From IMG/VR virus record IMGVR_UViG_3300020177_000966: DNA of 64,000 nucleotides, one strand, 5' to 3'. Source of the stretch: a virus. Its lineage: Duplodnaviria > Caudoviricetes. The notes under the pieces were generated by a model. That model worked only from the letters and a program-made list of their open reading frames with translations, did not search any database and was not told the origin of the DNA. A program made the position numbers and the translations under genes. Below, piece by piece: positions 1-20,449 of this stretch; the first letter of the stretch is position 1, and each line of letters starts with the position of its first letter.

Positions 1-705
1 TTAAGTAAACATACTGATAAAGTATTGCAACATTTAATAGATAATCCTCAACCTCAGTTAGAATTTTCTATTAATACAAATGCATGTCCCCCAGGAAAGC
101 TATGGAATAAGTTTATTAAAAAAATACAGCATCTTGAAAATAATAATTGTATTAAAGGATTTACCTTACATGTAAGTGCTGAAAGTAAAGGAGCGCAAGC
201 AGAGTATAGTAGAACAGGAATGAATTGGCAACAATTCTATGATAATGTATTATTGTATCTAAAAAATACTAACGGAAAACTAAGTTTTATGTCAGCATTT
301 AATATTTTAAGTTTTCCTACATTTAGACCGTTTCTTGGAATTGTGTTAAGACTACGTAATAGTTTTAAAAACAGAGTGAGAATTGCAATTCCATATGTAA
401 GAAATCCTGGATTTCTTGATGCAATGATTGCAACTGAAGACATGATTGAAACATATTTAATTCCTTGTATAAAGTTTATGGAAGAAAATTTTGACGAGCA
501 TGAAACAAATGATTTAAAAAGAATTGTGCAAGATTTAGATAAACGATTTAAAAATCCAGAAGAGTTTGGCAGTCTTGCTAAAGAACGTAGATTTATGTTT
601 TATGAATTTATTACTCAGTTTGACAAACGCCGAGGCACCGATTTCTTAACTGTATTTCCTGAATTAAAGAATTTTTACAAGGAGTGCAAACAATGTACGA
701 CATAG
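1..705 (+). CDS. Radical SAM protein, C-terminal part (5' end outside window)
   Basis: Frame is open from base 1 (LSKHTDKVLQHL...). NTN and 'SAESKGAQAEYSRTGMNW' resemble the S-I/V-D...EYIR..W segment of downstream paralogues (5547, 13995). The CxxxCxxC motif is not in the window. Confidence 0.7.
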   Translation, partial: LSKHTDKVLQHLIDNPQPQLEFSINTNACPPGKLWNKFIKKIQHLENNNCIKGFTLHVSAESKGAQAEYSRTGMNWQQFYDNVLLYLKNTNGKLSFMSAFNILSFPTFRPFLGIVLRLRNSFKNRVRIAIPYVRNPGFLDAMIATEDMIETYLIPCIKFMEENFDEHETNDLKRIVQDLDKRFKNPEEFGSLAKERRFMFYEFITQFDKRRGTDFLTVFPELKNFYKECKQCTT

Positions 706-1382
706 TGTTTATAAGTTATCATGAACCAAATGCAGAACAAAATTTTGACGATTTATATAGTAGATTTAATACAGTTGGAATCTTTGGTGATGACAGAGTA
801 AAGCGAGTTAGTAATGTAAAAGGGATCCACAATGCTCATATTGAAGCGGCTAAGTTATCAACTACTAATTACTTTTTTGTTGTAGACGGCGACGCAGTAA
901 TTGTTGATGAATTTGATTTTAATTACTATACAACCGAATCTGATACAGTGCATGTTTATAGAAGCATGAATCCTATTAATAATTTAATTTATGGGTATGG
1001 CGGCGTAAAGTTATTTCCAACTGAATTAACTAAGCAAATGGATACAAGTACAACAGATATGACAACTAGTATTAGTGATAAATTTAAAGTAATTAATGAG
1101 ATATCTAATATTACAGCATTTAATACAGATCCGTTTAACACATGGAAAAGTGCTTTTAGAGAATGTGCTAAATTAGCAAGTAAAACAATTGATAGACAAC
1201 ATGAGGATGAAACAAATGAAAGACTCAAAACTTGGACAACCTTGGGACACGATAGAGAGTTTGGTGAGTATGCGTTGGGAGGTGCTAGGGCTGGTATGCA
1301 GTTTGGCCTTTCTAACAGCAATGATATTAAATTAATAAACGACTTTGATTGGTTAAAGGAGCAATTTGATGCAAACTCATGA
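693..1382 (+). CDS. Glycosyltransferase-like protein (GT-A type, DxD)
   Basis: YDIVFISY start and 'YFFVVDGDAV' DxD motif. ATG at 693 chosen over GTG at 684. Confidence 0.55.
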   Translation: MYDIVFISYHEPNAEQNFDDLYSRFNTVGIFGDDRVKRVSNVKGIHNAHIEAAKLSTTNYFFVVDGDAVIVDEFDFNYYTTESDTVHVYRSMNPINNLIYGYGGVKLFPTELTKQMDTSTTDMTTSISDKFKVINEISNITAFNTDPFNTWKSAFRECAKLASKTIDRQHEDETNERLKTWTTLGHDREFGEYALGGARAGMQFGLSNSNDIKLINDFDWLKEQFDANS

Positions 1383-2202
1383 AATTTTAGATAGATTAGA
1401 ACTATTATATCCCACTAGTAGCAAACTATCAGATCTACGTAGAGCATATATTGACAAAGATCTTAATAGTATTTTTAGAATTGTTACAGATGACAATAAA
1501 GATGATTTACGTAAAGCATTGTTACAGGATAACGTATGGAGTTTATTTCGTGCAATTAAACAGATGAAAGATACACCTTTTATTGAAGGGATCCGTAAAT
1601 TACAAAAAAACGAAAACTTTGATCCAGACTGTATTAGTCGAGGTCAGATAAAAAGTAAACAGTGGCTAGTATCAGAACTAAAAAAATTAAATCTTGATCT
1701 AGGTGTTGTATTTTTATGTGCTGGTTGGTATGCTACACTTGCTACTATGATGTTTGAAAACAATTTAAAAATTGAAAAATTTAGAAGTTTTGACATCGAT
1801 GATACTTGCAGAGAAGTAGCAGAAGCATTTAATAAAAACTGGGTGCTAGACGGCTGGAAATTTAAATCATGTACTAAAGATATTAAAGAGATAAATTACG
1901 AAAATGCAATATACACAGTATTACGTGCTAATGGAACAACCGTTGATTTAGGAGATATTCCTAATACTATTATTAATACAAGTTGTGAACACATTAAAAA
2001 TTTTAGTGAGTGGTATGATTTAATTCCAGCAGGAAGATTAGTTGTATTACAAAGTAACGATTTCTATGAAGTTGAAGAACACGTTAACTGTACTACTAGC
2101 ATGCACGATTTTGCTAGAATGGCTCCTATGACAACATTATTGTATGAAGGAGAATTAGATCTTGAAAAATATACGAGGTATATGCGCATTGGATACAAGT
2201 AA
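1369..2202 (+). CDS. Class I SAM-dependent methyltransferase-like protein
   Basis: VVFLCAGWY (motif I-like), FRSFDID (acidic motif II), IINTSCEH. Confidence 0.55.
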   Translation: MQTHEILDRLELLYPTSSKLSDLRRAYIDKDLNSIFRIVTDDNKDDLRKALLQDNVWSLFRAIKQMKDTPFIEGIRKLQKNENFDPDCISRGQIKSKQWLVSELKKLNLDLGVVFLCAGWYATLATMMFENNLKIEKFRSFDIDDTCREVAEAFNKNWVLDGWKFKSCTKDIKEINYENAIYTVLRANGTTVDLGDIPNTIINTSCEHIKNFSEWYDLIPAGRLVVLQSNDFYEVEEHVNCTTSMHDFARMAPMTTLLYEGELDLEKYTRYMRIGYK

Positions 2203-2413
2203 TTTATCACTTAGACAACTGCAAACTGAAAGTGCTAGAGCATTAAGTACAATGCAAGCAACTAACAACAATATTTGGCAGTTTAATAAACAAGCACACC
2301 ACGATAGTCAAAACTGGTATCGTGCAGTTATTAAGTGGTATGTAGATCAATACGGTGACTTGCCTAGTAAAGTTGGACCGGGTAAAGATATAAAGTTGGT
2401 AATAGATGTATAA
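2189..2413 (+). CDS. Small hypothetical protein (74 aa, Trp/Tyr-rich)
   Basis: ORF overlaps both neighbours in operon style. TTG at 2189 is the likely start. Confidence 0.55.
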   Translation: MDTSNLSLRQLQTESARALSTMQATNNNIWQFNKQAHHDSQNWYRAVIKWYVDQYGDLPSKVGPGKDIKLVIDV

Positions 2414-3473
2414 TTATAGCGACATACGATCAATTCATTTAGAAGTTACACAAAACTGTCAAGCCAGTTGTCCTATGTGTGACCGTAATATGAATGGCGA
2501 AGGAATTAATCCTCATATTAATCTAGATGAACTTACATTAGAAGATTGTAAAAAAATATTCTCCCCAGAGTTTATTGCACAGCTTAATACTATGTATATG
2601 TGTGGTAACTTAGGTGATCCTATTGTTGCTCGTGACACATTAGAAATATTCAAATACTTTCGTGAACATAACCCAACGATGTGGTTAAGCATGAATACAA
2701 ATGCAGGAGCAAAAAATGTTGAATGGTGGAATGAATTGGCCTATGTCTTTGGAAGAATGGGGGCTGTTATTTTTAGTGTCGATGGTCTTCGCGATACGAA
2801 TCATATTTACAGACAAGGGGTAAATTGGGACAACGTAGAACGCAACATGCGAGCGTTTATCGATGCTGGCGGTAGAGCACGTTGGGACTTTCTTATATTT
2901 GAACACAATCAGCATCAAGTCGAAGAAGCTGAACAGTTAGCTAATGCATGGGGATGTGAGAAGTTTATAAAAAAGAAAACAGGAAGATTTGTAGATGCAA
3001 AGACAAACAAAAAAGAAAAGCATCAGGCCAAAGACCGTAAAGGCAAAGATACAGCAGAGCTCAAAAAGCCGGACGCACAATACCAAAACAAAGCTCTTAC
3101 AAAACAAGAAGCCATTATCAAGAAATATGGCAGTATGGATGCTTATTTTAACGCGGCTCCTATCGTATGTAAAGTTAAAAAAGAAGGTAGCCTCTTTATT
3201 ACAGCAGAAGGACTAGCATTGCCTTGTTGCTGGACTGCTGGTCGTATGTATAAATGGTGGCACAAAGATCCTAAAGTAGAACAGATATGGGATTTTATTC
3301 CTGATAAAAATGCACTAGACGCACGTAATGGTCTTGATAAAGTTTTTGCTACAGGTATATTTAATGAAATACAAGATAGTTGGAATAAACCTAGTTGTGA
3401 TGCCGGCAAACTAAAAGTATGTGCTACAAAGTGCGGCGCCGAGTTTGATCCTTTCACTGAACAGTTTAAATAA
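2406..3473 (+). CDS. Radical SAM protein with C-terminal SPASM/twitch-like domain (subfamily A)
   Basis: CQASCPMC, MCGNLGDP, SVDGLRDTNHIYR, C-terminal C..PCC..C..C. Confidence 0.9.
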   Translation: MYNYSDIRSIHLEVTQNCQASCPMCDRNMNGEGINPHINLDELTLEDCKKIFSPEFIAQLNTMYMCGNLGDPIVARDTLEIFKYFREHNPTMWLSMNTNAGAKNVEWWNELAYVFGRMGAVIFSVDGLRDTNHIYRQGVNWDNVERNMRAFIDAGGRARWDFLIFEHNQHQVEEAEQLANAWGCEKFIKKKTGRFVDAKTNKKEKHQAKDRKGKDTAELKKPDAQYQNKALTKQEAIIKKYGSMDAYFNAAPIVCKVKKEGSLFITAEGLALPCCWTAGRMYKWWHKDPKVEQIWDFIPDKNALDARNGLDKVFATGIFNEIQDSWNKPSCDAGKLKVCATKCGAEFDPFTEQFK

Positions 3474-3484
3474 GTACATATATA

Positions 3485-4552
3485 ATGATAAACATAAATG
3501 ACATACACAAAATCGAACTGGAAATTACAAGTGATTGTAATGCCGCATGCCCAGGTTGTGCAAGAACACTTAACCGAGACATCTTAGAAGTAACAAGTTT
3601 TTCACTTGATGACTTAAAAAGAATATTACCAGACGAGGCACATTTAAAAGATAAAGATATTAGGCTATGCGGCGTACTAGGAGATCCTGCAATTCACCCA
3701 CAGTTTGTTGAAATTGTAGAATACTTATTAGAAGGCGGCGCATATGTTACAATTAGTACTAATGGCGGCGTTGCACCTAAAGCAAGTTGGTATAGACTAG
3801 GTGAACTAAGCAAACAATACGGAAGAGACTTAATTATGATGTTCTGTATTGACGGACATCGAGAAACTAATCACATTTATCGTGTAAACACAAAGTTTGA
3901 TATAGTAAAACGTAATATCGAAGCGTTCGCAGAAAATTCTTATAAAGGTGATGATACAAGATCTAAGTGGGTTTTTATTGTATTTGATCATAACGAACAC
4001 GAAATTGAAGTTGCTAAAGCACATGCTAAAAGTTTGGGACTAAAATTTGTAATTAGAACAGGCATGCGTAATAGCTTAAATCAATGGACTGCCCAAATTG
4101 CAAAAAAAGAAGGCCGCGGAAACGTTACTAAAGAAGTAAAAACTATTACTACTACTGGTAGCAAAGAACATGCACGTAAAGACGAAGTATTAGAGTTGAT
4201 GAATAAAATTCAAACTAATCAAGTAGATGAAGAAGTTGTAAAATCTATTGTTTGTAAGTATGTTCATGAAGGCGAAATTTTTATTAATGCAAACCAAGAG
4301 ATGTGGCCTTGTTGTTTTTTGTGGGATAGTGCGTTTAAGAACAAAGAAAACATTTTAGAAAAATTATCTGAATATTCTACAGGATGGAATAGTTTAAAAA
4401 AACATAGCATTGAAGAAGTTATGAAACATCCTTGGTATACTAAGGTTTTAGAAGAAAGCTGGAATCCGTCACACAATAAACATATGAAACGGTGTGTTGC
4501 TAGTTGTGGCTTTAATAAAGCCTATCAAAATGTTATGGTGGAACAAGAATGA
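3485..4552 (+). CDS. Radical SAM protein with C-terminal SPASM/twitch-like domain (subfamily A)
   Basis: CNAACPGC, LCGVLGDP, IDGHRETNHIYR, WPCC..C..C. Confidence 0.9.
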   Translation: MININDIHKIELEITSDCNAACPGCARTLNRDILEVTSFSLDDLKRILPDEAHLKDKDIRLCGVLGDPAIHPQFVEIVEYLLEGGAYVTISTNGGVAPKASWYRLGELSKQYGRDLIMMFCIDGHRETNHIYRVNTKFDIVKRNIEAFAENSYKGDDTRSKWVFIVFDHNEHEIEVAKAHAKSLGLKFVIRTGMRNSLNQWTAQIAKKEGRGNVTKEVKTITTTGSKEHARKDEVLELMNKIQTNQVDEEVVKSIVCKYVHEGEIFINANQEMWPCCFLWDSAFKNKENILEKLSEYSTGWNSLKKHSIEEVMKHPWYTKVLEESWNPSHNKHMKRCVASCGFNKAYQNVMVEQE

Positions 4553-5550
4553 GTTGGCAAGTACCAGTAGAAAGACAAACTAAACTGCAAATTGAAATGT
4601 CAAATTATTGCAACGCGGCATGTCCTGCCTGTGCTCGTGCATTTATTAATGATAAACTTATTGATATGGATTATCACTTTGATGTGAATAGTATGTATGT
4701 AAGTTTAGAACAATTTAAAAGTTGGGTATCTAAAGATAAATGGACTGATTTGCGCCTAATCCATATGTGTGGTAACTACGACGAAGCAACTACTAATCCT
4801 GATTTAATTGAAATTGTTAAATGGATTTTATCTAATGATGAATTGTTTACTAGCAAACCTAAGATTTCTATTGCTACTAACGGCGGAACACGTAATGATG
4901 AGTTTTGGACAACGTTGGGAGAAATTTCAAAAGAGTCAAATGGTCGTGTTAGAGTAAATTGGGGATTAGATGGATTAGAAGATACTAACCATATTTATAG
5001 AGTAAATGTTGATTGGCAAAAAGTACAAAGAAATTTTAGAAATTATATTGCTGCCGGCGGCGACGCTGTATGGCAATTCATATATTTTTCGCATAACGAA
5101 CATCAAGCTCATCTTATAGAAGATATTGCAGCCAAAGAAGGATTTAGTAGAGTAAAATTTATCGGAAGCCCAAGAGCAGACTTAGGTAAAAACTCTCAGC
5201 ATAAAAGTGACCCTAAAGTTGAGAAAAAACAAGAAGTTCCAACAGTTATTCCAAGATGTATTAGTTCTAAAATAGAAGATCAAGGACTATATGTTACACA
5301 TCATGGATATGTTGTTCCGTGTTGCTGGTGGGGAACTAAGAGTGGATTTAGAGGTCTATGGCAACATTACAGTAAAGATCACGGAACTGAACATCATAGA
5401 CTAAATGGACATAATAGTATACAGGATATTTTTGATAGTGAATGGTATACTAATTTATATACAGGAATTAAAAACGGTATTTTTCCAAAGTGTATAGAAA
5501 ACTGTAAACAAAACAAAGTTGCAACGCAACGATTTGAGGCATTAAAATGA
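4549..5550 (+). CDS. Radical SAM protein with C-terminal SPASM/twitch-like domain (subfamily A)
   Basis: CNAACPAC, MCGNYDE, LDGLEDTNHIYR, VPCC..C..C. Confidence 0.9.
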   Translation: MSWQVPVERQTKLQIEMSNYCNAACPACARAFINDKLIDMDYHFDVNSMYVSLEQFKSWVSKDKWTDLRLIHMCGNYDEATTNPDLIEIVKWILSNDELFTSKPKISIATNGGTRNDEFWTTLGEISKESNGRVRVNWGLDGLEDTNHIYRVNVDWQKVQRNFRNYIAAGGDAVWQFIYFSHNEHQAHLIEDIAAKEGFSRVKFIGSPRADLGKNSQHKSDPKVEKKQEVPTVIPRCISSKIEDQGLYVTHHGYVVPCCWWGTKSGFRGLWQHYSKDHGTEHHRLNGHNSIQDIFDSEWYTNLYTGIKNGIFPKCIENCKQNKVATQRFEALK

Positions 5551-6959
5551 CAGAAAAACCTAAGTATCCATCAGAAACATTTTGTTTATTACCATGGGTG
5601 CATCTAAGCACAAGACCCGACGGCAGTATGCGTGTATGTTGTACAGCAAATGCAAGTAGCGTTGGTCCAACGAATGATAAAGAATATGGCGGACAAGTAG
5701 GTATACTTAAAGATGAAGAAGGTCGTCCTAATAATTTAAATGTTACTGACCTTAATACAGCATGGAATAGTACGTATATGAAGAATGTACGTAAACAAAT
5801 GCTTGCAGGTGAAAAGCCTCCTAGCTGTATGAAATGTTTCCGAGAAGAAGAAAATGGACATAGAAGTAAGCGTCAATGGGAAACAGCATATTGGAGTCAG
5901 CGTGTTGATCTAGATCAAATTTTACAAGAAACACAACCGGATGGTAGTGTTCCTCCGCAATTGGCATACATTGATTTGCGTTTTGGAACCAAGTGTCAGT
6001 TAGCATGTGTTATGTGTAGTCCGCATGATAGTTCGGGTTGGATTAAAGATTACAAAGCAATTTTTCCAGAAGTTAAAAATGAATCACTTAAAGAGATTAT
6101 GCAATGGGATAACAAAGGTAGTACCAATGGTAGTAGTTATAACTGGCATAAGCAAAATCCTGTATTTTGGGAACAGTTCTATGAACAGATGAAACACATG
6201 AAGCAAATTTATTTTGCCGGCGGCGAAAGTCTTATTATCGAAGAACACTACGAAATACTTGAGGAAGCAATACGCCAAGGACTTGCACCAGAATTAGAAC
6301 TACGTTATAATTCAAATGGTGTTGAATGGCGTGACGATTTATTTGAATTATGGAGTCATTTTAAACTTGTTAGATTCCATTACAGCGTAGACAGCATTGA
6401 GCAAATGAATGAATACATTCGTTATCCTAGTAAATGGGATAGAACAAAAGAAGTGTTTCATATTTTAGATAAAGAAACTACAGATAATGTTGAAGTTACA
6501 ATTGCTTGTGCAGTACAAGCATTAAACATTTATTATCTTCCTGATTTTATCAAATGGAAATTACAAGAAGGATTTAAAAAGATTAACATGTATCCATTTG
6601 GAGCGGGTACAGTAAACTTTCATTTTGTATATTGGCCGGCACATCTTAACGTTAGATCTTTGCCTAAATGGTTTAAAGAACAGTGCCGTAAAAAATATGA
6701 AGAATTTTATCCGTGGTTAGAAGCTAATTGGGAATTATGTATTCCTAGTTGGCATAAAGGTAAAGTTACATATGACCAGTGGCGAGAAGCAGAATATGGT
6801 ATTAAACGTCTTGACGGTATGTTACAATTTATGGAAAGCGAAGACTGGAGTCAACGTCTACCTGAAATGAAAGAATTCTTAGGACTGTGTGATAAACAGC
6901 GTGGAATTTCATTCGATGAAACTTTTCCAGAAATGAAGGACATATTTAAAGATGTCTAA
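5547..6959 (+). CDS. Radical SAM protein with N-terminal twitch-like domain (subfamily B)
   Basis: N-terminal FCLLPW..RVCC..CMKC, then CQLACVMC and FAGGES. Confidence 0.9.
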   Translation: MTEKPKYPSETFCLLPWVHLSTRPDGSMRVCCTANASSVGPTNDKEYGGQVGILKDEEGRPNNLNVTDLNTAWNSTYMKNVRKQMLAGEKPPSCMKCFREEENGHRSKRQWETAYWSQRVDLDQILQETQPDGSVPPQLAYIDLRFGTKCQLACVMCSPHDSSGWIKDYKAIFPEVKNESLKEIMQWDNKGSTNGSSYNWHKQNPVFWEQFYEQMKHMKQIYFAGGESLIIEEHYEILEEAIRQGLAPELELRYNSNGVEWRDDLFELWSHFKLVRFHYSVDSIEQMNEYIRYPSKWDRTKEVFHILDKETTDNVEVTIACAVQALNIYYLPDFIKWKLQEGFKKINMYPFGAGTVNFHFVYWPAHLNVRSLPKWFKEQCRKKYEEFYPWLEANWELCIPSWHKGKVTYDQWREAEYGIKRLDGMLQFMESEDWSQRLPEMKEFLGLCDKQRGISFDETFPEMKDIFKDV

Positions 6960-7590
6960 ACGTATACACATTTTTGGTTGCAGTTTTGTTGAAGGACAAA
7001 TTAGAGAAACTGAATGTTTGACTGGCAGATCTAATTTTCCTGAATATCTGTCGTTACTTGCACCTAATTTAAAAATTTATAATTGGGGTGTATCTGGTAC
7101 AAGTATAAATTATCATCTATATCTTTCATCAAAAGTTAAACAATTTTACAATACTTTAGATGATGTGTATATTTTAAAGTGTACTACTCCGGGCAGATTA
7201 ACATCGTGGAAAGTACTAGAAGATCATTATTTTGAATCTCCTAAAGAAATAACATCAAATTATCATTACCAACACGTGCCTAGAAAAAAGTTTAAGGTAC
7301 ATAATCTTCGCCAAGAAACTCCTGACCAATTAGCAAATTATTATTTTCTTAACTTAGAATGGAAGCAATTAGACTTTGAATATACTGTTAGCTTAGGTTA
7401 TGCAGAAAATAATTTTGATTTTGTATACTCACATCATGAAGGAACCAAGGTTCCTTGCATTAGAAAAATTTTAGGAAAAGAAAAATATCAAAAATATATC
7501 AAAGACGATGGAAGACATTTTGGAGATGATGGTAATAAATGGGAAGCACAATGGCTTTTTAAAAAATTAACTGAGAAAGAATTAGTATGA
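6952..7590 (+). CDS. SGNH/GDSL-fold hydrolase or acyltransferase-like protein
   Basis: IFGCSF (block I), NWGVSGTS (block II), DDGRH (block V). Confidence 0.5.
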   Translation: MSKRIHIFGCSFVEGQIRETECLTGRSNFPEYLSLLAPNLKIYNWGVSGTSINYHLYLSSKVKQFYNTLDDVYILKCTTPGRLTSWKVLEDHYFESPKEITSNYHYQHVPRKKFKVHNLRQETPDQLANYYFLNLEWKQLDFEYTVSLGYAENNFDFVYSHHEGTKVPCIRKILGKEKYQKYIKDDGRHFGDDGNKWEAQWLFKKLTEKELV

Positions 7591-8765
7591 GTTTTGACAC
7601 TATAGATTTATTATCAGGAAATATTTTCCAAATTACTTGGGATTTAGGCCGACGTTGCAATTATGATTGTAGTTATTGCCCTGCTCATAGGCATGACAAT
7701 TTTAGTCCTCACGCATCATTAGACGATCTTAAATCTAATACTGACTTTTTGTTTGAATATATTGATACCTATATGCAGTATAGAAATAATAAATTAGCAA
7801 GTATTAGTTTTACAGGCGGCGAACCTACAGTAAATCCTAATTTTATTCCTTTTGTAAAATATTTAAATGACGAATATTATAAAAAGTATTCTCATAAATG
7901 GGATGCCAATATAGGATTAACTACTAACGGGGCTATGAGTGAAAAAATGGCTGAAGCAGTTATCGAAAATATACAACATGTAACAGTTAGCTATCATACT
8001 GAATCGGATGATAAATTACGACAGCAAGTTAAGGATAGAATTAAACAATTTCGTGAAGCAGAAATAAAATATCCTAAAGACTTTCGAATGAATGTTAATG
8101 TTATGTTTCATGCTCAACAATTTGACGAATGTAAAGAATTGTGCAAATGGTTAGACACACTTGGTTGTAAATATGTTCCAAGGGTTATTGGAGAAGAACC
8201 TGACAGTAAAGCAACTTTTGCTCATGAGTACACACCAGATCAATTAGATTACATTAAAAATTATTGGAAATATAAAAATGCTAAACTAAATGATGAAGAA
8301 GAAGTATCAAAAGTATTAAGTGCCGCAGGCGAAAAGAAAAATGAAGCAACAAAAGTTTTAGGAAGTAGTATCGGAAGACCATGTTGTGGTATGCGAGAGA
8401 TGTGTCTAAGTAGTGCTGGCGGCGAAAGTCGCAAAAGTACCTTTGTTAACATGCGAGAGTTTAAAGGTTGGCATTGTAGTGTAAATTGGTTTTTCCTACA
8501 TTTAGAACAACAGACAGATCAGGTATTCCATCATCAAACATGTCAAGCACGATTTGATGGTACAAGAGGTCCAATAGGTAAAATAAGTGAAGGTAAAAAG
8601 ATTATTGCAGATCTTAAAGAAAAGTTATCAATGAATAAAATGCCAACAATTGTTTGTCCTAAACAAACATGTAGTTGTGGATTATGTGCACCTAAAAGTA
8701 AATTTAAAGACAGTTACAAAGACACACTACAGAATCATTTTAATGTGGAAATCTTAGATGTCTGA
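7587..8765 (+). CDS. Radical SAM protein (subfamily C)
   Basis: WDLGRRCNYDCSYC, FTGGEPT, TTNG, C-terminal CxCxxC. Confidence 0.9.
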   Translation: MSFDTIDLLSGNIFQITWDLGRRCNYDCSYCPAHRHDNFSPHASLDDLKSNTDFLFEYIDTYMQYRNNKLASISFTGGEPTVNPNFIPFVKYLNDEYYKKYSHKWDANIGLTTNGAMSEKMAEAVIENIQHVTVSYHTESDDKLRQQVKDRIKQFREAEIKYPKDFRMNVNVMFHAQQFDECKELCKWLDTLGCKYVPRVIGEEPDSKATFAHEYTPDQLDYIKNYWKYKNAKLNDEEEVSKVLSAAGEKKNEATKVLGSSIGRPCCGMREMCLSSAGGESRKSTFVNMREFKGWHCSVNWFFLHLEQQTDQVFHHQTCQARFDGTRGPIGKISEGKKIIADLKEKLSMNKMPTIVCPKQTCSCGLCAPKSKFKDSYKDTLQNHFNVEILDV

Positions 8766-9822
8766 TTATAAGTGTTTAGAATCACTAAACAGCATTTATG
8801 TAGATAAACGGAGTAGCGGATATCTTATTTCGCCATGTTGCCTTTTTAAGCAAACAGAATATAATGCAGTAAAAAACATTCAAGAACTAGTTGATAATCC
8901 TATTATTAAAAATATACAACAAGGATTTAAGGATGATTGGAAACGTCCTGAATGCCAAAGTTGTATATCTAAAGAAATAATAGGCTTACAAAGTAAGAGG
9001 CAAAAAAGTTTATTAAGAGGATCTCCTGGAAAACTTTTAAGATGGGACCTTAGACCAGGATTCACATGTAATTTAAAATGTGCAATGTGTAATCCTTACA
9101 ATAGCTCTAAGTGGGGAGAAGACTTAGAAATTTTTGAAAAGTATAATGGAAAAGTTTATTTAGAACAAAATGATAGAGAAGGGCTAGACTGGGACTGGAT
9201 TTATGATAATTGTATCAACGTTGCTGAAGAAATCTATATTGCAGGCGGCGAACCTTTCTATATGAAAGCAGTTCAAACATTTCTTACTAAATTATCAGAA
9301 CACCCTTGGAATTGTAACAATACAGTGATTGTAGTTCAAACTAATGCAGTGAGTAATACACCAAAGTTATTAAAGATATTAAAACGCTTTAAAAAACTAA
9401 ACTTTGGAATTAGTATAGACGGATGGGGAACAGTTAATGAAATCATTAGGTATCCTACAAAGCACGAAACTTTTGTTAAGAATGTTAAAGAGCTAACTAG
9501 TATTACTAAAGATTTTTATTTTAATATAACAGTTCAAGCAATGAATCTTCCAAATGTAGATAAAACAGTCAACAAAGTATCAAATTGGGGTCGATGGGAA
9601 ATACATAAACTTAATACGCCTTCTCATTTAAGTATTAATAGTTTAAAACCATCAGTAGTTGAAAGAGTTAAAGATACAACGTCGATAGATTTATTAAAAG
9701 AATTTTTAAAAGATTATAAATTTGACAACGAAAAGAATATTAAAATGCAAAACTATCTATTGGAACTTGATAATGCAAGAGGAACTGATAGTAAAACAAC
9801 CTTACCGTGGTGCTTTGAATAA
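8758..9822 (+). CDS. Radical SAM protein with N-terminal twitch-like domain (subfamily B)
   Basis: N-terminal C..SPCC..CQSC, then CNLKCAMC, IAGGEP, SIDG. Confidence 0.9.
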   Translation: MSDYKCLESLNSIYVDKRSSGYLISPCCLFKQTEYNAVKNIQELVDNPIIKNIQQGFKDDWKRPECQSCISKEIIGLQSKRQKSLLRGSPGKLLRWDLRPGFTCNLKCAMCNPYNSSKWGEDLEIFEKYNGKVYLEQNDREGLDWDWIYDNCINVAEEIYIAGGEPFYMKAVQTFLTKLSEHPWNCNNTVIVVQTNAVSNTPKLLKILKRFKKLNFGISIDGWGTVNEIIRYPTKHETFVKNVKELTSITKDFYFNITVQAMNLPNVDKTVNKVSNWGRWEIHKLNTPSHLSINSLKPSVVERVKDTTSIDLLKEFLKDYKFDNEKNIKMQNYLLELDNARGTDSKTTLPWCFE

Positions 9823-10763
9823 TGTGGACAACTGATACACTAGAATGGATTGATATTGAACTTACTAGCTTTTGTAATATTAAGTGCAAAGGTTGTTTTA
9901 GAGTGATATCTAAACATGCAGATCAAATTTTAAATAAAACTTATTTAGATCTTGAAGTTATTAAGCAAAGATTTCAAAAGGAAATGTTTCCTAATATTAA
10001 GATTATCAATTTTTGTGGCAGTGTGGACGAACCTTGCAGTCATCCTCAGTTTCATGAAATAGTAGAACACTTTGCAGAATGGGGATGTCATATTAATGTT
10101 GCAACCAATGGTAGTTTGCGTACGACACAATGGTGGGAAAAACTAGCAAAGATTATGCCGCCGAGCCATAAGGTAACATGGGGCATTGATGGTAGCGACG
10201 AACTAAGTGAAGTTTATAGAGAAGGCTCTAATTTTAAAAAAGTACAGCAAAATTATAGAGCATTTATTGGAGCAGGCGGCAAAGCCAATTGGCAGTTTAT
10301 TGTATTTGAACACAATGAACACCAACTAGAAGTTGCAAAACAAATGGCAACAAATGAAGGCTTTAAAGAATTTAAAACGATCATTAGTCATAGAAAAGAT
10401 ACTGGCGGAGTAAAACATAAAAAAGTTGAAGTAGAAGAGTCTAATTGTATCAGTTGCAAGTACGGTAATCAAAAACGTATTTTTGTAAATCATATGGGAA
10501 ATGTAATTCCATGCTGTCATTTAAATGCAAAGATGTTAGAATATTCTGTATCTTCTATTCCAAAGGATAGATTTGAAGACATACTAGAACAACAAGATTA
10601 TCTAACAGATATTAATTTAAAAAATGTTAGCTTAGAGCAAGCAATTAACGGAAAAGTTTGGACTGATATTAAAAACAGTTGGACGTCAGACAATAAAATT
10701 CCAAGATGTGAGCAAGTATGTAAAGAAAACAAAAGAGATAAGTTTATAAAGGATAAACTATAA
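9822..10763 (+). CDS. Radical SAM protein with C-terminal SPASM/twitch-like domain (subfamily A)
   Basis: CNIKCKGC, FCGSVDEP, TNGS, IDG, IPCC..C..C. Confidence 0.9.
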   Translation: MWTTDTLEWIDIELTSFCNIKCKGCFRVISKHADQILNKTYLDLEVIKQRFQKEMFPNIKIINFCGSVDEPCSHPQFHEIVEHFAEWGCHINVATNGSLRTTQWWEKLAKIMPPSHKVTWGIDGSDELSEVYREGSNFKKVQQNYRAFIGAGGKANWQFIVFEHNEHQLEVAKQMATNEGFKEFKTIISHRKDTGGVKHKKVEVEESNCISCKYGNQKRIFVNHMGNVIPCCHLNAKMLEYSVSSIPKDRFEDILEQQDYLTDINLKNVSLEQAINGKVWTDIKNSWTSDNKIPRCEQVCKENKRDKFIKDKL

Positions 10764-11947
10764 TGGAACCAGTAGCAAGTTATTTTAAATTTAATCCAAC
10801 TGGCGCATTTAGTGTCGATTGGTATATTGGAAAAAGATGTAATTATGATTGCAGTTATTGTGTAGATTATTTGCACGATAATCATAGTCCACACGTTCCG
10901 TTAGAAAACATGAAGCGTCTTGTTGATGTAGTTTATGAAGAACATGGCACTAATGTATTTTGGAGTTTGACAGGTGGAGAGCCTACTGTGAATCCAAAGT
11001 TTATGGAGTTGTGTAAGTACATTAAAGAAGAAAAAGGTGCAAGATTTATTAGTATTACTACTAATGGAAGTAGAACTGCAAAATATTTAAAAGAGCTATT
11101 CCGATATCTAGACAGTATTACAGTTAGTTTTCATTTTGAACACATGGCAGATAAGGTTGATGAATTTATTGAAAAGTTTATTGAACTGGATGATTGGCGT
11201 GTGGCATGGAATAAAGAACAAGAAGAAAAAGGACTTAATCATAAAGACTTTAAAAACGGTTATACTCGAAAAAATTTAATATTAAGATTTATGGTTTATC
11301 CTGAGCAGTTTAATAATATTGAAAAAATGGAAACTGCATTTAGGAATCATGGCATTACTAATATTGAACATAGATATATACGTCCACCAGGCGGCAATAG
11401 TAATGAACTATTACCTAGAACAAAACTAGACTTTGAAAAAAATAATGATACAATGGATCCTAAAATACTATTGTCTACGGACGACGAAGTAGAAATTAAG
11501 GTAATTGAAACTAGAGAAAAGAAATTTTATAAAGAAGGCGAAGAAGATAAAATTAAGAGAATTTATGAAAGCACTGTTACTCCAGATAAACGTAAATTAA
11601 AGTTTTGGTTCCAAGATGAAGAAAAACAATACAAAGATATTGACTTTCATTACAACGAACTTAATTTTGACAAGAAAAATAATTATGAAGGCTGGCTATG
11701 TTGGGCAGGTGTAAAACATTTAAAAGTAACTCCTCCGGGAGACATTTATATTGGCAGTTGTCACGTTGGAGGAAAGAGAGGAAACATTTATGATAAAGAC
11801 TCAATTGATCTTCCTTTAGAACCTATTAGATGTCCTAAGTGGAGATGTACAGATAATTTAGATTTAAAAGTTCCTAAGATTAAAGACTGGGAACATTATC
11901 ATTTAATTAAAGATATGATTGAATGGAAGGTTGACAAAGATCAATAA
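10763..11947 (+). CDS. Radical SAM protein (subfamily C)
   Basis: WYIGKRCNYDCSYC, LTGGEPT, TTNGSR, C-terminal CWAG..SC..C..C. Confidence 0.9.
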   Translation: MEPVASYFKFNPTGAFSVDWYIGKRCNYDCSYCVDYLHDNHSPHVPLENMKRLVDVVYEEHGTNVFWSLTGGEPTVNPKFMELCKYIKEEKGARFISITTNGSRTAKYLKELFRYLDSITVSFHFEHMADKVDEFIEKFIELDDWRVAWNKEQEEKGLNHKDFKNGYTRKNLILRFMVYPEQFNNIEKMETAFRNHGITNIEHRYIRPPGGNSNELLPRTKLDFEKNNDTMDPKILLSTDDEVEIKVIETREKKFYKEGEEDKIKRIYESTVTPDKRKLKFWFQDEEKQYKDIDFHYNELNFDKKNNYEGWLCWAGVKHLKVTPPGDIYIGSCHVGGKRGNIYDKDSIDLPLEPIRCPKWRCTDNLDLKVPKIKDWEHYHLIKDMIEWKVDKDQ

Positions 11948-11959
11948 GTGTGTTAGTAT
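11931..11959 (+). promoter_or_regulatory. sigma70-type promoter
   Basis: TTGACA-17 bp-TAGTAT just upstream of the ATG at 11966. Confidence 0.7.
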
Positions 11960-11965
11960 AGTATT

Positions 11966-13090
11966 ATGACTGAAGACCTAAAATGGAGCAATTATGATTT
12001 TACTAAAATTCCTCTTGAGGATATTGTCTCTGTGGGGCAAAGAACTCTACTCTATAGGGATCTTTTTACTGTTAGTTGGTTGCTCGGCCGTTTTTGTAAT
12101 TATAAATGCTCTTACTGCTGGCCGTACGCTCGCAGTGACAGAAAAGATCATAGACCAACTGTATTATGTCTACGAACAGTGGACGAAATAAAAAGACAAG
12201 CAAGAGATAATGGTTTTAACAGCTTCCACTTCTCCTTGTCGGGAGGAGAGCCTACTTTCCATCCTGGATACTTGGACATTCTCAAACATCTTGCAGAAGA
12301 TGTAGAAAACACAAACTATACAAGTATACACATGACTTCAAATTGTAGTAGAAATATGAAGTGGTTTGAAACTTATGTTGATTATGCAAAGCCCTTTCAT
12401 AGGGCAAGTATTACAGCAAGTCTGCATACAGAACATGTAAACACAAAGGAGAAGATGCAGGAGTTCGCAGACAAATTAATCCTGTGTCAAGAAAACGATG
12501 TACAAATTACAATTAATCAAGTTATGGTTCCTGAATGGTTTGAAAGAGATTGGGAAAACGCTCTGTTCTTCCACGAGCAAGGTATCAATGTCACTCTTAA
12601 GCCTCAGTCCGATCCAACTGCCTCAAGAGTGGTTGATGGATATACAGAAGAACAACTTAAAAAACTCTACAACGGAATGCCGCAAAGGGCATACACAGAA
12701 AGTAAACGAAAATGGGACGGCAGGCCTAAACCGTCATTCGAAATACCTAAAGGAATAAATGGCACCAACGACGCTAGTGTACCTTGGCATATGCAAGTAG
12801 AATTTGAGGATAAAAATGGAAAAAAATGGTACATGGATCAAGCTGAGCGTTTTAATGCTTTTAATTTTAATAACTTTAAAGGTTGGAATTGCAATGCCGG
12901 ATACCAAGGAATCATTATTAGAGAGCCCGACGGTTCCGTTAAGCGATCCTATTCCTGTCACGATGTGCCGCTTGGAAATATTGAAACAGGATTTAAACTC
13001 TTTGATACCCCTATGCCCTGCATTACAAACTCCTGTGTCTCAAGTGCAGATTCAAAAATACCAAAAAGGAAAGTAGTGTGCCCGGAATAA
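11966..13090 (+). CDS. Radical SAM protein (subfamily C)
   Basis: WLLGRFCNYKCSYC, LSGGEPT, C-terminal CNAG..SC..C..C. Confidence 0.9.
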   Translation: MTEDLKWSNYDFTKIPLEDIVSVGQRTLLYRDLFTVSWLLGRFCNYKCSYCWPYARSDRKDHRPTVLCLRTVDEIKRQARDNGFNSFHFSLSGGEPTFHPGYLDILKHLAEDVENTNYTSIHMTSNCSRNMKWFETYVDYAKPFHRASITASLHTEHVNTKEKMQEFADKLILCQENDVQITINQVMVPEWFERDWENALFFHEQGINVTLKPQSDPTASRVVDGYTEEQLKKLYNGMPQRAYTESKRKWDGRPKPSFEIPKGINGTNDASVPWHMQVEFEDKNGKKWYMDQAERFNAFNFNNFKGWNCNAGYQGIIIREPDGSVKRSYSCHDVPLGNIETGFKLFDTPMPCITNSCVSSADSKIPKRKVVCPE

Positions 13091-13701
13091 TTCATATTGA
13101 ACCAACTTCAAGATGTCCATTACAATGTCCTTTGTGTCCAAGAACAATATATTCAGATAAAATACAAAATACAGATTGTGATATTGAGCACTATAGTGAT
13201 TTAACATCTACGTTTGACGAAATTATTATTTGTGGAAACCACGGCGATCCAATATATCATAAAGATTTTATCGGATTAATACGTAAGATTAAAGAAAAGA
13301 ACAACACTGCTAAATTAATTTTACATACTAACGGAAGTTATAGAAGTAAAGATTGGTGGAGTAAATTAGCAAAAGTGTTTGATGCCAACGACGAAATTAA
13401 TTTTAGTATTGATGGTATTGAAAGTAATAATCACATGTACCGAGTAAATTCTAAGTGGGATTTAATTGTAAAGGGTATAGAAGCATTTAGAAAAAATAAT
13501 AGTTCAACTAAGTTAATATGGAAACATATACTTTTTAAATATAATCAAAATACTATTACACAAGCATTAGTAATAGCTAAACAATTAAATTTTGATCAGT
13601 TTATGATAGTACAAAGTAATCGCAATAGTGATAAATTTAATCCTACAATAACAATTAATCAACTTGAAGAAAATATAAAAAATGATCTATCCACGATGTA
13701 A
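13078..13701 (+). CDS. Radical SAM core domain (subfamily A), separated from its SPASM-like domain
   Basis: CPLQCPLC, ICGNHGDP, TNGS, SIDG..NHMYR. The ORF stops where paralogues continue into the Cys-rich domain. Confidence 0.85.
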   Translation: MPGIIHIEPTSRCPLQCPLCPRTIYSDKIQNTDCDIEHYSDLTSTFDEIIICGNHGDPIYHKDFIGLIRKIKEKNNTAKLILHTNGSYRSKDWWSKLAKVFDANDEINFSIDGIESNNHMYRVNSKWDLIVKGIEAFRKNNSSTKLIWKHILFKYNQNTITQALVIAKQLNFDQFMIVQSNRNSDKFNPTITINQLEENIKNDLSTM

Positions 13702-14005
13702 GATTAATAAAGCCGCAGAATATATTGATAGTGATGGTTATTATTATCCATGCTGTTGGATAGCTAATCAACCTTATGTTGATGATCTAAAAGAATTTCT
13801 CGGAGAAGATCTAAAAGACTTGCATACACAAAATAAATCCATACAGGATTTAAGGGAAAGTAAAGCATTAACTAAATTAGAAAATAGTTGGAATAAATCA
13901 GATTGCTTCTATGCTTGTAAGAAATTTTGTAGTAAAAATCCTGCTGACATAAAAAATGAAGGCGGCGCTCACACAATTAACGAACACATTATTTTTAATC
14001 TTTAA
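13682..14005 (+). CDS. Stand-alone SPASM/twitch-like Fe-S domain (probable C-terminal half of 13078 gene)
   Basis: IYPRC..GYYYPCCW..C..C matches the C-termini of the 2406, 3485, 4549 and 9822 proteins. Confidence 0.75.
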   Translation: MIYPRCKINKAAEYIDSDGYYYPCCWIANQPYVDDLKEFLGEDLKDLHTQNKSIQDLRESKALTKLENSWNKSDCFYACKKFCSKNPADIKNEGGAHTINEHIIFNL

Positions 14006-15176
14006 TAGTTACAAATATATCTGAAAATTGTGGATAACTTTCAAAAAAGTTTTGTCCTCTATGCTTATCTGTAATTTCTATATATCGTTTAAGATTAGGA
14101 AGTAAATAACTATCATCCTTGCTATTCATAAAATTTTTAATATAATCTAAATTTTTATTAATTTTTGGGTTAGTACAAGTTTTTTGATAGTTGTTAAATT
14201 TTTCTGTAACACGTTTTTTGATATGTTCAGGCAATGATGTTACACAGAGTTTCTCAGGATATGTTAAGTGTGTTGGATTCATAACTTTAAATCCGTGATC
14301 GTTTTCCCACCACCATTCTAAACTTTCAGGCATATTCCACACATTGAGTATGCTAATAGTACTACGCAATAGTACATCAAATCCGTGACTCTTTTTAAGT
14401 TCTAAAAAACGTTTAGTAACTGCTTCTGTAGTTTCGTACTTAGCAGGCCAGCGAATGTATTCACTTTCTGATGGATTAGCACTATCAAAACTAAGAGCAA
14501 ATTCTACTTTTTTAAATTTACTCCATTTTTCAATCCAGCTGTCTTTTGGCATAATAGTACAGTTAGTACTATAGTTTAAAAATATTTCACTGCAATCTCT
14601 TTCAGCAAGCATTTTATCTACAAGTACCCATTGGTCTTTAGTCATCAATGGCTCGCCGCCTGTAAATTTTACATGAACTAAATCATTAATAAACGGATAT
14701 ATGTTAGTAATATCACTTTTACTTTTTTCTACTTCATTAAACGATTTTCCGTAGATTAACTTTTCTTCATTAAACCATTTCCAACTGTATCTACTATCGC
14801 ACATACGACATGCAAGATTACAGTCATTACTAATAGCAAGTTCGATCCAACCTATTTTTGGATTTTCAATATCAACTAACTGATCAATTGGCAATGCTTC
14901 GTTATCAAGATAGCGTTCACGTAAGCTCTTTTTTCCAGACTCTTCTTCTTGATAGCAACGTACACACCCGTCTACTTGTTCACCAGCAAGCATCTTACGA
15001 CGGATTTCTTCCATCCAGTCACCATAAAATATTTCACTTAATGTTTTATCGTTTAGGTTATGATCCTTTGGTCTAAACTTTTCAGCAAACCTACAACATG
15101 GTTTTACTCGTGCAGTAGGATCAATAAACTGATGATCCCATGCCATACTGCAAAATGTTTTACTTGGAATTTTCAT
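13995..15176 (-). CDS. Radical SAM protein with N-terminal twitch-like domain (subfamily B)
   Basis: FCSMAW..KPCC..CVRC, then CNLACRMC, FTGGEP. ATG at 15176. Confidence 0.9.
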   Translation of the reverse strand: MKIPSKTFCSMAWDHQFIDPTARVKPCCRFAEKFRPKDHNLNDKTLSEIFYGDWMEEIRRKMLAGEQVDGCVRCYQEEESGKKSLRERYLDNEALPIDQLVDIENPKIGWIELAISNDCNLACRMCDSRYSWKWFNEEKLIYGKSFNEVEKSKSDITNIYPFINDLVHVKFTGGEPLMTKDQWVLVDKMLAERDCSEIFLNYSTNCTIMPKDSWIEKWSKFKKVEFALSFDSANPSESEYIRWPAKYETTEAVTKRFLELKKSHGFDVLLRSTISILNVWNMPESLEWWWENDHGFKVMNPTHLTYPEKLCVTSLPEHIKKRVTEKFNNYQKTCTNPKINKNLDYIKNFMNSKDDSYLLPNLKRYIEITDKHRGQNFFESYPQFSDIFVTIKD

Positions 15177-15957: not shown

Positions 15958-15985
15958 ATTGTAATGTGTATCCTTTTTTTCTTAT

Positions 15986-16003
15986 TAAATACACATATAT
16001 TTA
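15986..16003. promoter_or_regulatory. Back-to-back TAAATA late-promoter-like motifs between divergent genes
   Basis: TAAATA on + at 15986-15991 and on - at 15998-16003. Confidence 0.45.
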
Positions 16004-16031
16004 CTAAAAGATATCGAATGGATTAGCGAAA

Positions 16032-20381: not shown

Positions 20382-20419
20382 AATTTTTCTCCACATTTTT
20401 TCAAAAAAATGTTCTCCTG

Positions 20420-20435
20420 ATATAATTAATTATAT
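20420..20435. promoter_or_regulatory. Perfect 16-bp palindrome between divergent genes (possible bidirectional late promoter)
   Basis: ATATAATTAATTATAT, flanked by CTCC (20414-17) and GGAG (20440-43). Confidence 0.45.
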
Positions 20436-20449
20436 ACAAGGAGAAAATA

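Follow-up and report, generated by a model that had tools for sequence, protein, structure and literature searches.

A tandem array of twelve radical SAM genes in an uncultured jumbo phage and its possible role in glycan tailoring

Gene content of the array

The window, i.e., the whole stretch of 64,000 nucleotides that was analysed, is part of IMGVR_UViG_3300020177_000966, an IMG/VR virus record of 145,946 bp from an uncultured salt-marsh jumbo phage. The phage origin of the array is confirmed by the virus record and by the T4-type DNA polymerase it encodes, which is nearest to those of the jumbo phages Phosso, Atu_ph07 and GAP32 (at most 50% identity). Tail-fibre genes, one of them with a Collar domain, run straight into the island with no break, and giant genes also lie upstream. 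The phage fragment, itself only about 40% complete, yielded neither an IscU nor an A-type carrier gene. Contigs from RNA libraries span the island region, with DNA carry-over as a possible source.

The tandem series of radical SAM (rSAM) genes noticed in a preliminary description is present, with twelve intact CxxxCxxC genes within about 16 kb. PF04055 scored above its cut-off directly in 11 of the 12, and did so in the twelfth, at 29.7 bits, once neighbouring stretches of the frame were included. The gene at the window edge (r01; 1–705, plus strand) had been listed as a truncated, probable member of subfamily B. The assignment holds, but the truncation belongs to the window only: the full reading frame extends from –641 to 705 in window coordinates and encodes 448 aa, of which the C-terminal 234 lie in the window, with CxxxCxxC at residue 136. 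Translational coupling had been described for most of the array genes and is seen in nearly all of them, with overlaps of 1, 4 or at least 8 nt or else gaps of no more than 18 nt. One correction to the earlier listing concerns r12 (13995–15182), which is on the minus strand and convergent with the other eleven rSAM genes.

All-against-all blastp of the twelve genes recovered the three subfamilies exactly as first listed. Subfamily A includes the core gene r02 (2406–3473; PF04055 and conserved Cys), which has a C-terminal twitch-like module, together with r03 (3485–4552; PF04055), the variable cassette r04 (4549–5550; PF04055 and blastp) and r08 (9822–10763; PF04055, SPASM 29.6 bits), all on the plus strand. 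Its fifth member is genuinely split into an rSAM core (r11N; 13078–13701, plus strand) and a separate twitch-like Cys module (r11C; 13682–14005, plus strand; SPASM E value 0.008) that aligns by blastp with the C-terminal parts of r02, r04 and r08; the same split is found in two related contigs, L003 and L071. Subfamily B consists of r01, r05 (5547–6959, plus strand), r07 (8758–9822, plus strand) and r12, and is characterized by an N-terminal twitch module with four Cys and the motif CxxxCxxC-x-P-xx-SS-x-W. All four pass the NCBIfam model NF033640 at 189–426 bits, the cut-off being 170 bits (r01, 298; r05, 426; r07, 192; r12, 302). Conservation within the island is highest for r05, to which 2117 proteins are related at E values up to 1e-10. 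Subfamily C, which has its own C-terminal module of four Cys, comprises r06 (7587–8765; PF04055 and conserved Cys), r09 (10763–11947) and the core gene r10 (11966–13090), all on the plus strand. The subfamily-specific auxiliary Cys set is retained in 97–100% of the sequences compared (107, 216 and 68 for the three subfamilies), as are the catalytic Cys. Because each auxiliary set contains 4–5 Cys, the modules, first described as SPASM/twitch-like, are twitch-like and not full SPASM domains. No island member reaches the cut-off of any characterized equivalog, in agreement with the initial description, in which no characterized pathway was recognized.

Among the neighbouring genes, for which glycosyltransferase, methyltransferase and SGNH functions had been suggested, the first two assignments are upheld by the predicted folds. 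The product of 684–1382 (plus strand) has no Pfam or PDB match at the sequence level, yet its model (pLDDT 89) is that of a GT-A-fold glycosyltransferase-like protein (Foldseek E value 1e-5, probability 1.0), the top matches all being GT-A transferases, and D68 and D70 are invariant across 21 sequences. A paralogue is located just upstream of the window (–1563 to –643). GT-A folds also serve in the glycosylation of proteins and peptides. The product of 1366–2202 (plus strand; pLDDT 91) is predicted to have the fold of class I SAM-dependent methyltransferases and, at its N terminus, a helical domain. Its PDB matches at E values up to 0.001 number at least 500; the top matches listed are all Rossmann-fold SAM-utilising enzymes, nearly all of them methyltransferases, and an Atlas lead points to Methyltransf_31. 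The SGNH assignment is weaker: the product of 6952–7590 (plus strand) is a candidate SGNH/GDSL-like hydrolase with conserved G-C-S and D..H motifs and a Lipase_GDSL match (E value 0.036) under the cut-off. The product of 2162–2413 (plus strand) is a small helical protein of about 72–83 aa, its start being uncertain, which is highly conserved (66 of 80 related loci, median identity 76%) and confined to phage-type contigs, with no homologue found in the cellular islands described below. Beyond r12 lie a PP-loop ATPase gene with a QueC-like zinc tail (15160–15957, minus strand), whose paralogues recur next to rSAM genes within related arrays, and a gene for an Asp/Asn beta-hydroxylase-like oxygenase (16032–16664, plus strand; PF05118, 26.8 bits). 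The PP-loop protein was rejected as a QueC orthologue (23 bits against a cut-off of 150).

Peptide maturation is the best-known role of SPASM/twitch rSAM enzymes. The array might modify a protein or peptide post-translationally, such as the tail fibre, the giant upstream proteins or the 2162–2413 product, by RiPP-like chemistry (thioether or C–C crosslinks, epimerisation, methylation), with the GT-A enzymes glycosylating the same protein. The continuity with the fibre genes and the adjoining hydroxylase-like gene would fit such a role, as would the weak NCBIfam matches, which are mostly to peptide maturases, SkfB as the best solved match of r05, and, among the GT-A fold matches, enzymes that glycosylate proteins or peptides (ppGalNAcT, SunS and PBCV-1 A64R). 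Pilin-like and TSP_3 surface proteins adjoin the cellular arrays as well. We nevertheless regard it as unlikely. Profile searches returned no RRE or PqqD-type domain in any island gene, the rSAM motif already appears at residues 13–44 in subfamilies A and C, none of the twelve enzymes has an N-terminal extension able to hold a peptide-recognition domain, and the junctions are too tight for precursor genes. The small protein shows about 76% conservation and was not found in the cellular islands, and the bacterial locus with the Wzt fusion and nearby rmlD points to a polysaccharide.

Related loci in phages and bacteria

Related loci were found in 80 viral contigs, among which 50 loci are full-length, every one with 6–11 rSAM genes around a conserved core formed by the GT, the MT, r02, r05 and r10. 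In these contigs r05 has orthologues of 74–99% identity, and r02 is present at 50% identity or more in 73 of the 80 loci. Around the core are variable single-gene cassettes, 99 sequence clusters in the 80 loci. Compared with contigs of 89–97% identity, the window shows two precise one-gene indels (6953–7586 and 8766–9803), corresponding to the SGNH-like cassette (6952–7590) and the r07 cassette (8758–9822), both missing from the closest relatives. The array genes are under purifying selection (pN/pS about 0.2). The multi-step assembly line initially envisaged is retained as a dense, conserved tailoring island of rSAM, GT and MT genes, while a single fixed line is doubtful because the core is kept and the cassettes are exchanged.

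The set is not phage-specific, since it is also found in Bdellovibrio-type predatory bacteria. An island of 28 kb in a Bdellovibrionia chromosome contains 12 rSAM genes together with genes homologous to the GT, MT, PP-loop and hydroxylase genes of the phage, and the orthologous set shares 36–67% identity with that of the phage (67% for r10, 58% for r12). Homologues of the PP-loop (39%) and hydroxylase (40%) proteins are located within and at the edge of this cellular island, respectively. The NF033640 family comprises no fewer than 9,333 clusters when grouped at 50% identity. Among 201 Bdellovibrionota genomes it was found in 45, compared with 2 of 300 from other Pseudomonadota, and its multi-copy arrays are enriched in Bdellovibrionota. 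In a Bdellovibrionales array, the flanks contain GT2 and AsnB-type amidotransferase genes. One Pseudomonadota genome encodes an N_Twi_rSAM protein and the ATPase of the Wzt O-antigen ABC exporter in a single frame of 854 aa; its Wzt part includes the carbohydrate-binding domain (E value 4e-70 to 8dku/7k2t), three further N_Twi_rSAM copies follow directly, and rmlD, for dTDP-4-dehydrorhamnose reductase, lies about 800 nt upstream. The paralogue expansion within the phage that had been proposed is not borne out: the copies are only 22–35% identical and have orthologues in the Bdellovibrionia chromosome, so that the set is old and must have been acquired or shared as a block.

These comparisons also bear on whether there is a common pathway at all. 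The genes could be independent accessories accreted in a hypervariable region, each acting alone or non-functional; this part of marine T4-like phage genomes is known as a hypervariable zone of host recognition (PMC7029224), single genes are gained and lost, and r11 is split. This is very improbable given that rSAMs of all three subfamilies recur with GT, MT, PP-loop and hydroxylase genes in the 80 viral contigs and in the Bdellovibrionia chromosome, and that the genes are coupled, with intact catalytic residues and under purifying selection.

A proposed glycan-tailoring pathway

Of the products first suggested (virion glycan, protein side chain, nucleotide or small molecule), a glycan is the best supported, by indirect evidence, and we give a probability of about one half to the region being a hypervariable glycan-tailoring island. 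Two GT-A-fold genes with the invariant DxD stand at the head of the array, followed by the methyltransferase-fold gene. In bacteria, the Wzt fusion, the nearby rmlD, the GT2/AsnB-type flanks and the Bdellovibrionia island suggest, from gene neighbourhood and one gene fusion, a link of the rSAM subfamilies to sugars. The missing peptide-recognition extensions and the lack of room for precursor genes, the cassette-type variability, the purifying selection and the Cys retention argue in the same direction, as do the nearest solved sequences (BlsE, viperin-like enzymes and MoaA), which act on sugar-nucleosides or nucleotides. Since the set is also found in Bdellovibrio-type bacteria and beside O-antigen export genes, a surface sugar polymer is most likely what the putative rSAM chemistry would tailor.

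In the proposed pathway, the two GT-A transferases would draw on nucleotide sugars to assemble or lengthen a sugar chain, and the class I methyltransferase, the SGNH-type esterase or acyl-transferase and the QueC-like PP-loop enzyme would add or convert substituents. Each of the twelve twitch-type rSAM enzymes, using SAM and two clusters (that of the CxxxCxxC motif and one auxiliary), would remove a hydrogen atom from a carbon of the sugar and then perform a different radical edit, for example epimerisation, oxidation, deoxygenation, decarboxylation or C–C/C-methyl formation. With the core kept and single-gene cassettes exchanged, the product would differ from strain to strain in the manner of O-antigens. 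The target, we infer, is most likely a glycan on a virion fibre protein or the surface polysaccharide of the infected cell.

Downstream of the island lie genes for AMP-binding and aminotransferase IV proteins and a TctA transporter, which would suit a small-molecule pathway just as well. Sugar modification of DNA is known from T4-type phages. Alternatively, then, the product of the island could be a modified nucleotide, a hypermodified DNA base, a cofactor or a diffusible small molecule, with rSAM enzymes working on nucleotides and a PP-loop enzyme like QueC; the recurrence of the PP-loop gene and the resemblance of subfamily C to viperin and MoaA in the SAM-core region would be consistent with it. 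It is quite unlikely, however, as the scores are far under the cut-offs, no FolE, QueD, DpdA or hydroxymethylase was detected among the island genes scanned, the homologous chromosomal arrays adjoin O-antigen export and GT2 genes, and extreme cassette diversity is atypical of a cofactor pathway.

Comparison with known systems

Genes of this kind are already on record in viruses, as counts or mentions: twelve rSAM genes were counted in a T4-like environmental genome (PMC5332604), rSAM cassettes were mentioned in the host-recognition clusters of marine myophages (PMC7029224), and both surveys mention cassettes that differ between close genomes. The present array resembles these in its count of twelve and its site behind fibre and giant structural genes, but the polymerase of this phage is nearest to jumbo phages, not pelagimyophages. 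NF033640 (N_Twi_rSAM, twitch domain-containing radical SAM protein) is a catalogued family that r01, r05, r07 and r12 match end to end; here it accounts for 4 of the 12 genes of a phage array.

BtrN is a twitch-type rSAM enzyme acting on sugars or sugar-nucleosides. Subfamily A resembles BtrN and BlsE (PDB: 7vob) in having, besides the SAM cluster, just one auxiliary cluster, placed in a short Cys module. Its best solved sequence match, and the nearest for r03, is BlsE, but over only the first approximately 130 residues of the SAM core (E value 9e-5), which implies no orthology, and the TIGR04466 score was 30 bits (cut-off 400). Viperin/MoaA-type enzymes, the best PDB and NCBIfam matches of subfamily C, have the W..G..CNY.C.YC core in common with it (E value 6e-8 for r09 with viperin-like enzymes). 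Subfamily C differs in its C-terminal 4-Cys module and in its scores (44–54 bits against the viperin cut-off of 180), the similarity ending at about residue 125.

We know of no described O-antigen cluster that depends on a dozen rSAM enzymes. Unlike O-antigen/capsule clusters of the Wzm-Wzt type, the phage array was not found to contain genes for a polymerase, a flippase, an exporter or the synthesis of nucleotide sugars. What it shares with them is the combination of glycosyltransferases with methyltransferase and amidotransferase-type tailoring genes, the cassette variation between close strains and, in one bacterium, the N_Twi_rSAM-Wzt fusion close to rmlD.

Organization and family membership of the array

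The window represents the reverse strand of positions 6014–70013 of a linear IMG/VR virus record of 145,946 bp. The record has an estimated completeness of about 40% (CheckV), and its phage genes include one for a T4-type DNA polymerase. The polymerase has at most 50% identity to that of any cultured phage, the nearest being the jumbo phages Phosso, Atu_ph07 and GAP32, and near-identical DNA is present in many salt-marsh metagenome runs. A tandem array of twelve radical SAM (rSAM) genes, r01 to r12, had been proposed at the start of the window, and is confirmed: CxxxCxxC is present in 12 of the 12 ORFs between −641 (negative coordinates lie upstream of the window start) and 15182, and 11 of the products match PF04055 at 31–63 bits, over the gathering cut-off of 29.5 bits. 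The remaining product scores 25.8 bits alone and 29.7 bits with neighbouring stretches of its frame added, and matches NF033640 at 298 bits. The gene r01, which begins at −641 and ends at position 705, had been called truncated; it is cut by the window edge but is whole in the record (448 aa). Eleven of the genes are on the plus strand, where successive genes overlap by 1–41 nt or are separated by gaps of 11 and 18 nt, while r12 (13995–15182) is on the minus strand and convergent. The r11 locus encodes a split enzyme, with the core at 13078–13701 and a separate Cys module ORF at 13682–14005, and the same split is found in two other assemblies.

The results from all-against-all BLAST give the same three subfamilies that had been recognized by eye, with within-group identities of just 22–35%. 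Subfamily A consists of r02, r03, r04, r08 and r11 (starting at 2406, 3485, 4549, 9822 and 13078), subfamily B of r01, r05 (5547), r07 (8758) and r12, and subfamily C of r06, r09 and r10 (7587, 10763 and 11966). Membership of NF033640 (N_Twi_rSAM) was defined as a full-length match over a cut-off of 170 bits. On this basis r05 (426 bits), r12 (302 bits), r01 (298 bits) and r07 (189–192 bits) are members, and the other eight (22–52 bits) are not. No curated family is reached by subfamilies A and C, whose best matches are 20–60 bits against cut-offs of 170–650. The nearest solved sequences, for the SAM-core region only, are BlsE for A, SkfB for B, and viperin-like enzymes and MoaA for C. Assignment to the prokaryotic viperins (NF038283) was rejected, the best score being 54.5 bits (r09, residues 17–123 only) against a cut-off of 180. 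NF033640 itself is a large family of at least 9,333 clusters (E value ≤1e-30). Among the top-scoring matches of the subfamily B profile (P0124–P0154), many are chains of 770–1400 aa with two or three N_Twi modules, which indicates that the tandem genes are sometimes fused.

Conservation was assessed with 107 A, 216 B and 68 C distinct sequences from related contigs. The cysteines of the SAM cluster are 100% conserved in all three sets, and each subfamily keeps its own set of 4–5 auxiliary cysteines at 97–100%. In subfamily B the auxiliary module is N-terminal, so that C13, C31, C94 and C97 (97–100%) precede C150/C154/C157, and the Pfam SPASM matches fall at residues 11–97; subfamilies A and C have no N-terminal extension. 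In most of the genes the SPASM matches are partial or under the cut-off. A full SPASM domain, with two auxiliary clusters and 7–8 Cys, was rejected because only 4–5 auxiliary Cys are conserved per subfamily. These numbers predict one auxiliary cluster per enzyme, and hence modules of the twitch type, so that only the second half of the original designation "SPASM/twitch-like" is retained.

Neighbouring genes, flanking regions and expression

Three enzymes had been proposed to accompany the array: a glycosyltransferase (GT; 684–1382), a methyltransferase (MT; 1366–2202) and an SGNH-like enzyme (6952–7590). Neither the GT nor its upstream paralogue (−1563 to −643) has a Pfam, PHROG, NCBIfam or PDB sequence match. 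The AlphaFold (AF2) model of the GT from 21 homologues (pLDDT 89) has a GT-A fold, its top PDB and Swiss-Prot fold matches are all GT-A glycosyltransferases (E value 1e-5 to 4e-6; TM 0.4–0.5), and the DxD aspartates D68 and D70 are conserved. The model of the MT (pLDDT 91) is a class I methyltransferase with a Rossmann fold. At least 500 PDB entries match it at E value ≤0.001, the best 50 being Rossmann-fold SAM-utilising enzymes, almost all of them methyltransferases, while a Pfam scan of 17 orthologues returned no methyltransferase family. The models thus uphold the first two assignments; the third has only a sub-threshold match to GDSL (PF00657; E value 0.036; 14.6 bits against 23.6), with G-C-S and D..H conserved in 5 sequences. 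PDB-sequence profile searches with the GT-like, MT-like and SGNH-like alignments gave nothing useful, and PHROGs offered no function for the non-rSAM genes of the array. These genes also include a very highly conserved small protein (2162–2413) and a PP-loop ATPase (15160–15957) with the SGGMDS motif and a QueC-like zinc tail. Identity of the latter with QueC was rejected, since TIGR00364 scores 23 bits against 150 and matches the C-terminal zinc tail only. Thirty positions differ between the window sequence and the stored record, 13 of them clustered within the SGNH-like cassette (7221–7534) and 17 elsewhere; as several recur in RNA-library contigs, they look like natural strain polymorphism.

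Upstream of the array and on the same strand is a 4987-aa ORF (−26031 to −11068; L178:83–15046, minus) that encodes 8 Cys, matches no PDB sequence and lacks internal repeats; its product is probably a giant protein of the structural or baseplate-fibre kind. Genes for a fibre protein with a Collar domain and for further, unassigned proteins share this strand, and a target on the virion or the cell surface is suggested by the position of the island behind fibre genes. Downstream are a hydroxylase-like gene (16032–16664) and an accessory block (17449–24088) encoding a class IV aminotransferase, two AMP-binding (adenylating) enzymes and a full-length TctA tricarboxylate-transporter subunit, an unusual gene for a phage. 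They are followed on the minus strand by genes for a protein with an Mtd_N (major tropism determinant N-terminal) domain (24080–25243), a 619-aa protein with 5'-3' deoxyribonucleotidase-like and ParB-like parts (53296–55155), and a 750-aa ATP-dependent protease homologue (phrog_4871; 61074–63326).

Scans for promoters (79 versus 84 expected) and terminators (7 versus 6.3 expected) were at chance, and T4-type late motifs (TATAAATA) occur only at −6520 and 24139. In four runs, RNA-library contigs with at least 99% identity cover 29–30 of the 30 bins of positions 1–20000. This is a weak hint that the array is expressed, because the contigs show neither strand nor level and DNA carry-over is possible. 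No gene for IscU or an A-type Fe-S carrier was found in the record, which at about 40% completeness is uninformative on this point.

Relatives among viruses and bacteria

Orthologues of r05 (74–99% identity) are present in at least 80 IMG/VR contigs, and a protein database search with r05 gave 2117 relatives at E value ≤1e-10, the matches listed being near-orthologues only. The comparison of arrays that had been called for showed 6–11 rSAM genes in 50 of the 50 loci with full 10-kb flanks. Clustering at 45% identity divides the rSAM proteins of related loci into 99 groups, of which 71 are B, 17 A and 10 C. A core of the GT, the MT, the small protein, r02, r05 and r10 recurs, often with r03 and r06, but the remaining genes vary. 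Two contigs that are 89–97% DNA-identical to the window are without two of its genes (6953–7586 and 8766–9803), and both indels begin and end at gene junctions. In the core genes, pN/pS is about 0.2 and synonymous sites are nearly saturated. An accretion of unrelated genes is less likely than the sugar-tailoring reading given below.

Neither the array nor the replication region had a megablast match among 50,697 phage records, and no close relative was found among the cultured phages of the collection. The Vibrio phages K566 and K567 each have a row of four distantly related B-type genes. In the cultured, 255-kb K566 (L179, OZ196521.1, 161548–168284), one of the four N_Twi-like genes is annotated just as hypothetical. 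This mini-array is a possible laboratory model for the N_Twi family. An apparent fusion in another locus (L172) was rejected as a spurious antisense-like ORF extension.

Scanning species-representative genomes with the subfamily B alignment returned mostly Bdellovibrionota. Five such genomes have 4–16 over-cut-off copies of NF033640 each, many of them in tandem. The family was found in 45 of 201 sampled Bdellovibrionota genomes, often in at least eight copies, in 2 of 300 further Pseudomonadota genomes and in none of 14 controls. A 936-kb Bdellovibrionia contig contains a 28-kb island with twelve CxxxCxxC genes; the island has homologues of r10 (67% identity), r05 (59%), r12 (58%), r06 (43%) and r03 (36%), as well as of the GT (37%), MT (42%), PP-loop (39%) and hydroxylase (40%) genes, together with a B12-rSAM and an SDR-like gene. 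No phage genes were found in the flanks of the island, and the GC content of this contig is 0.45–0.48 versus 0.33 in the phage. The preliminary description had viewed the array as a paralogue expansion within the phage. With the same gene set in a Bdellovibrionia chromosome, this view is abandoned: the gene set is an old, co-inherited enzyme kit and was not expanded in this phage.

The phage members of the r10 family group in a single, well-supported clade of the tree, with Bdellovibrionota outside; the rooting is uncertain. Some MAG contigs that fall among the phage sequences, e.g., one labelled Crocinitomicaceae, are phage DNA that was probably mis-binned. The same is likely for L095, L088, L112 and L129, which are assigned to Crocinitomicaceae, Neisseriaceae, Gammaproteobacteria and Rickettsiales bins: their island genes are 63–85% identical to those of the phage, and at least one of these contigs lies inside the phage clade. 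Relatives of TctA (at most 35% identity) occur in 1 of 201 Bdellovibrionota versus 74 of 301 Pseudomonadota genomes, which argues weakly against a Bdellovibrionota host. Since these relatives are mainly in Pseudomonadota, the link to Bdellovibrionota more likely reflects shared function or an old transfer than capture from a host. A literature search on Bdellovibrio with radical SAM, and on the family name, found no functional study. Beside one Bdellovibrionales rSAM array is a gene (L168:10421–11833, plus) whose 470-aa product has a type IV pilin N-terminal methylation motif, and another array of this kind includes a gene for a thrombospondin type 3 repeat surface protein (L167:9121–10326, minus).

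Links to glycans and proposed function

One of the Bdellovibrionales arrays has GT2 and AsnB-type genes in its flanks. In a Pseudomonadota genome, an N_Twi_rSAM and a Wzt O-antigen exporter ATPase, including the carbohydrate-binding domain of the latter, are encoded in a single open frame of 854 aa. The Wzt part has an E value of 4e-70 to the solved WzmWzt ATPase. The PDB entries matched are presumably Wzt, and TarH, TagH and RfbE come next in the match list, consistent with this identity. Three more N_Twi_rSAM copies directly follow the fusion, and rmlD is about 800 nt upstream. The island is most economically read as modifying a sugar polymer, or the nucleotide-sugar precursors of one, by radical chemistry; exchange of cassettes would then generate strain-level diversity of the product. 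Synthesis of a nucleotide or small molecule is possible, at lower odds beside these O-antigen links. Modification of a protein or peptide is likewise possible at lower odds. No RRE or PqqD-like recognition domain was matched among the island genes in Pfam or NCBIfam, and the array has no intergenic room for a precursor peptide gene.

We give a chance of about one in four to a broader proposal. N_Twi_rSAM with its A and C partners would be a very large, unstudied toolkit for combinatorial radical sugar editing. Its interchangeable cassettes would let jumbo phages and predatory Bdellovibrionota, both of which must dock on Gram-negative envelopes, mark their attachment fibres, or the surface of the attacked cell, with a hypervariable glycan code. 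If so, the radical chemistry of carbohydrates would be extended, and a further, new level of host or prey recognition, or of immunity evasion, would be added. To our knowledge, sugar-acting radical SAM enzymes are few, and each one characterised has revealed new chemistry. The island draws attention to a family of over 9,000 sequence clusters without an assigned reaction, whose members are used by the dozen in abundant uncultured phages and in predatory bacteria, within a region associated with host recognition. Were the substrate a glycan, these enzymes would be an unrecognised source of surface-sugar diversity, with possible effects on the host range of phages, on superinfection exclusion and on predator-prey specificity, and a rich source of biocatalysts. 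The question is now testable with the conserved core (GT, MT, r02, r05 and r10), the cellular counterparts with O-antigen links, and the cultured K566.

Comparable gene sets have been noted before. A marine viral genome survey recorded 12 rSAM genes for one T4-like genome (PMC5332604), and a study of pelagimyophages mentioned rSAM cassettes in a host-recognition cluster (PMC7029224); neither analysed those genes. The present analysis adds the Wzt fusion with rmlD nearby, the one-gene indels, the cluster census, the size of the family and the K566 model.
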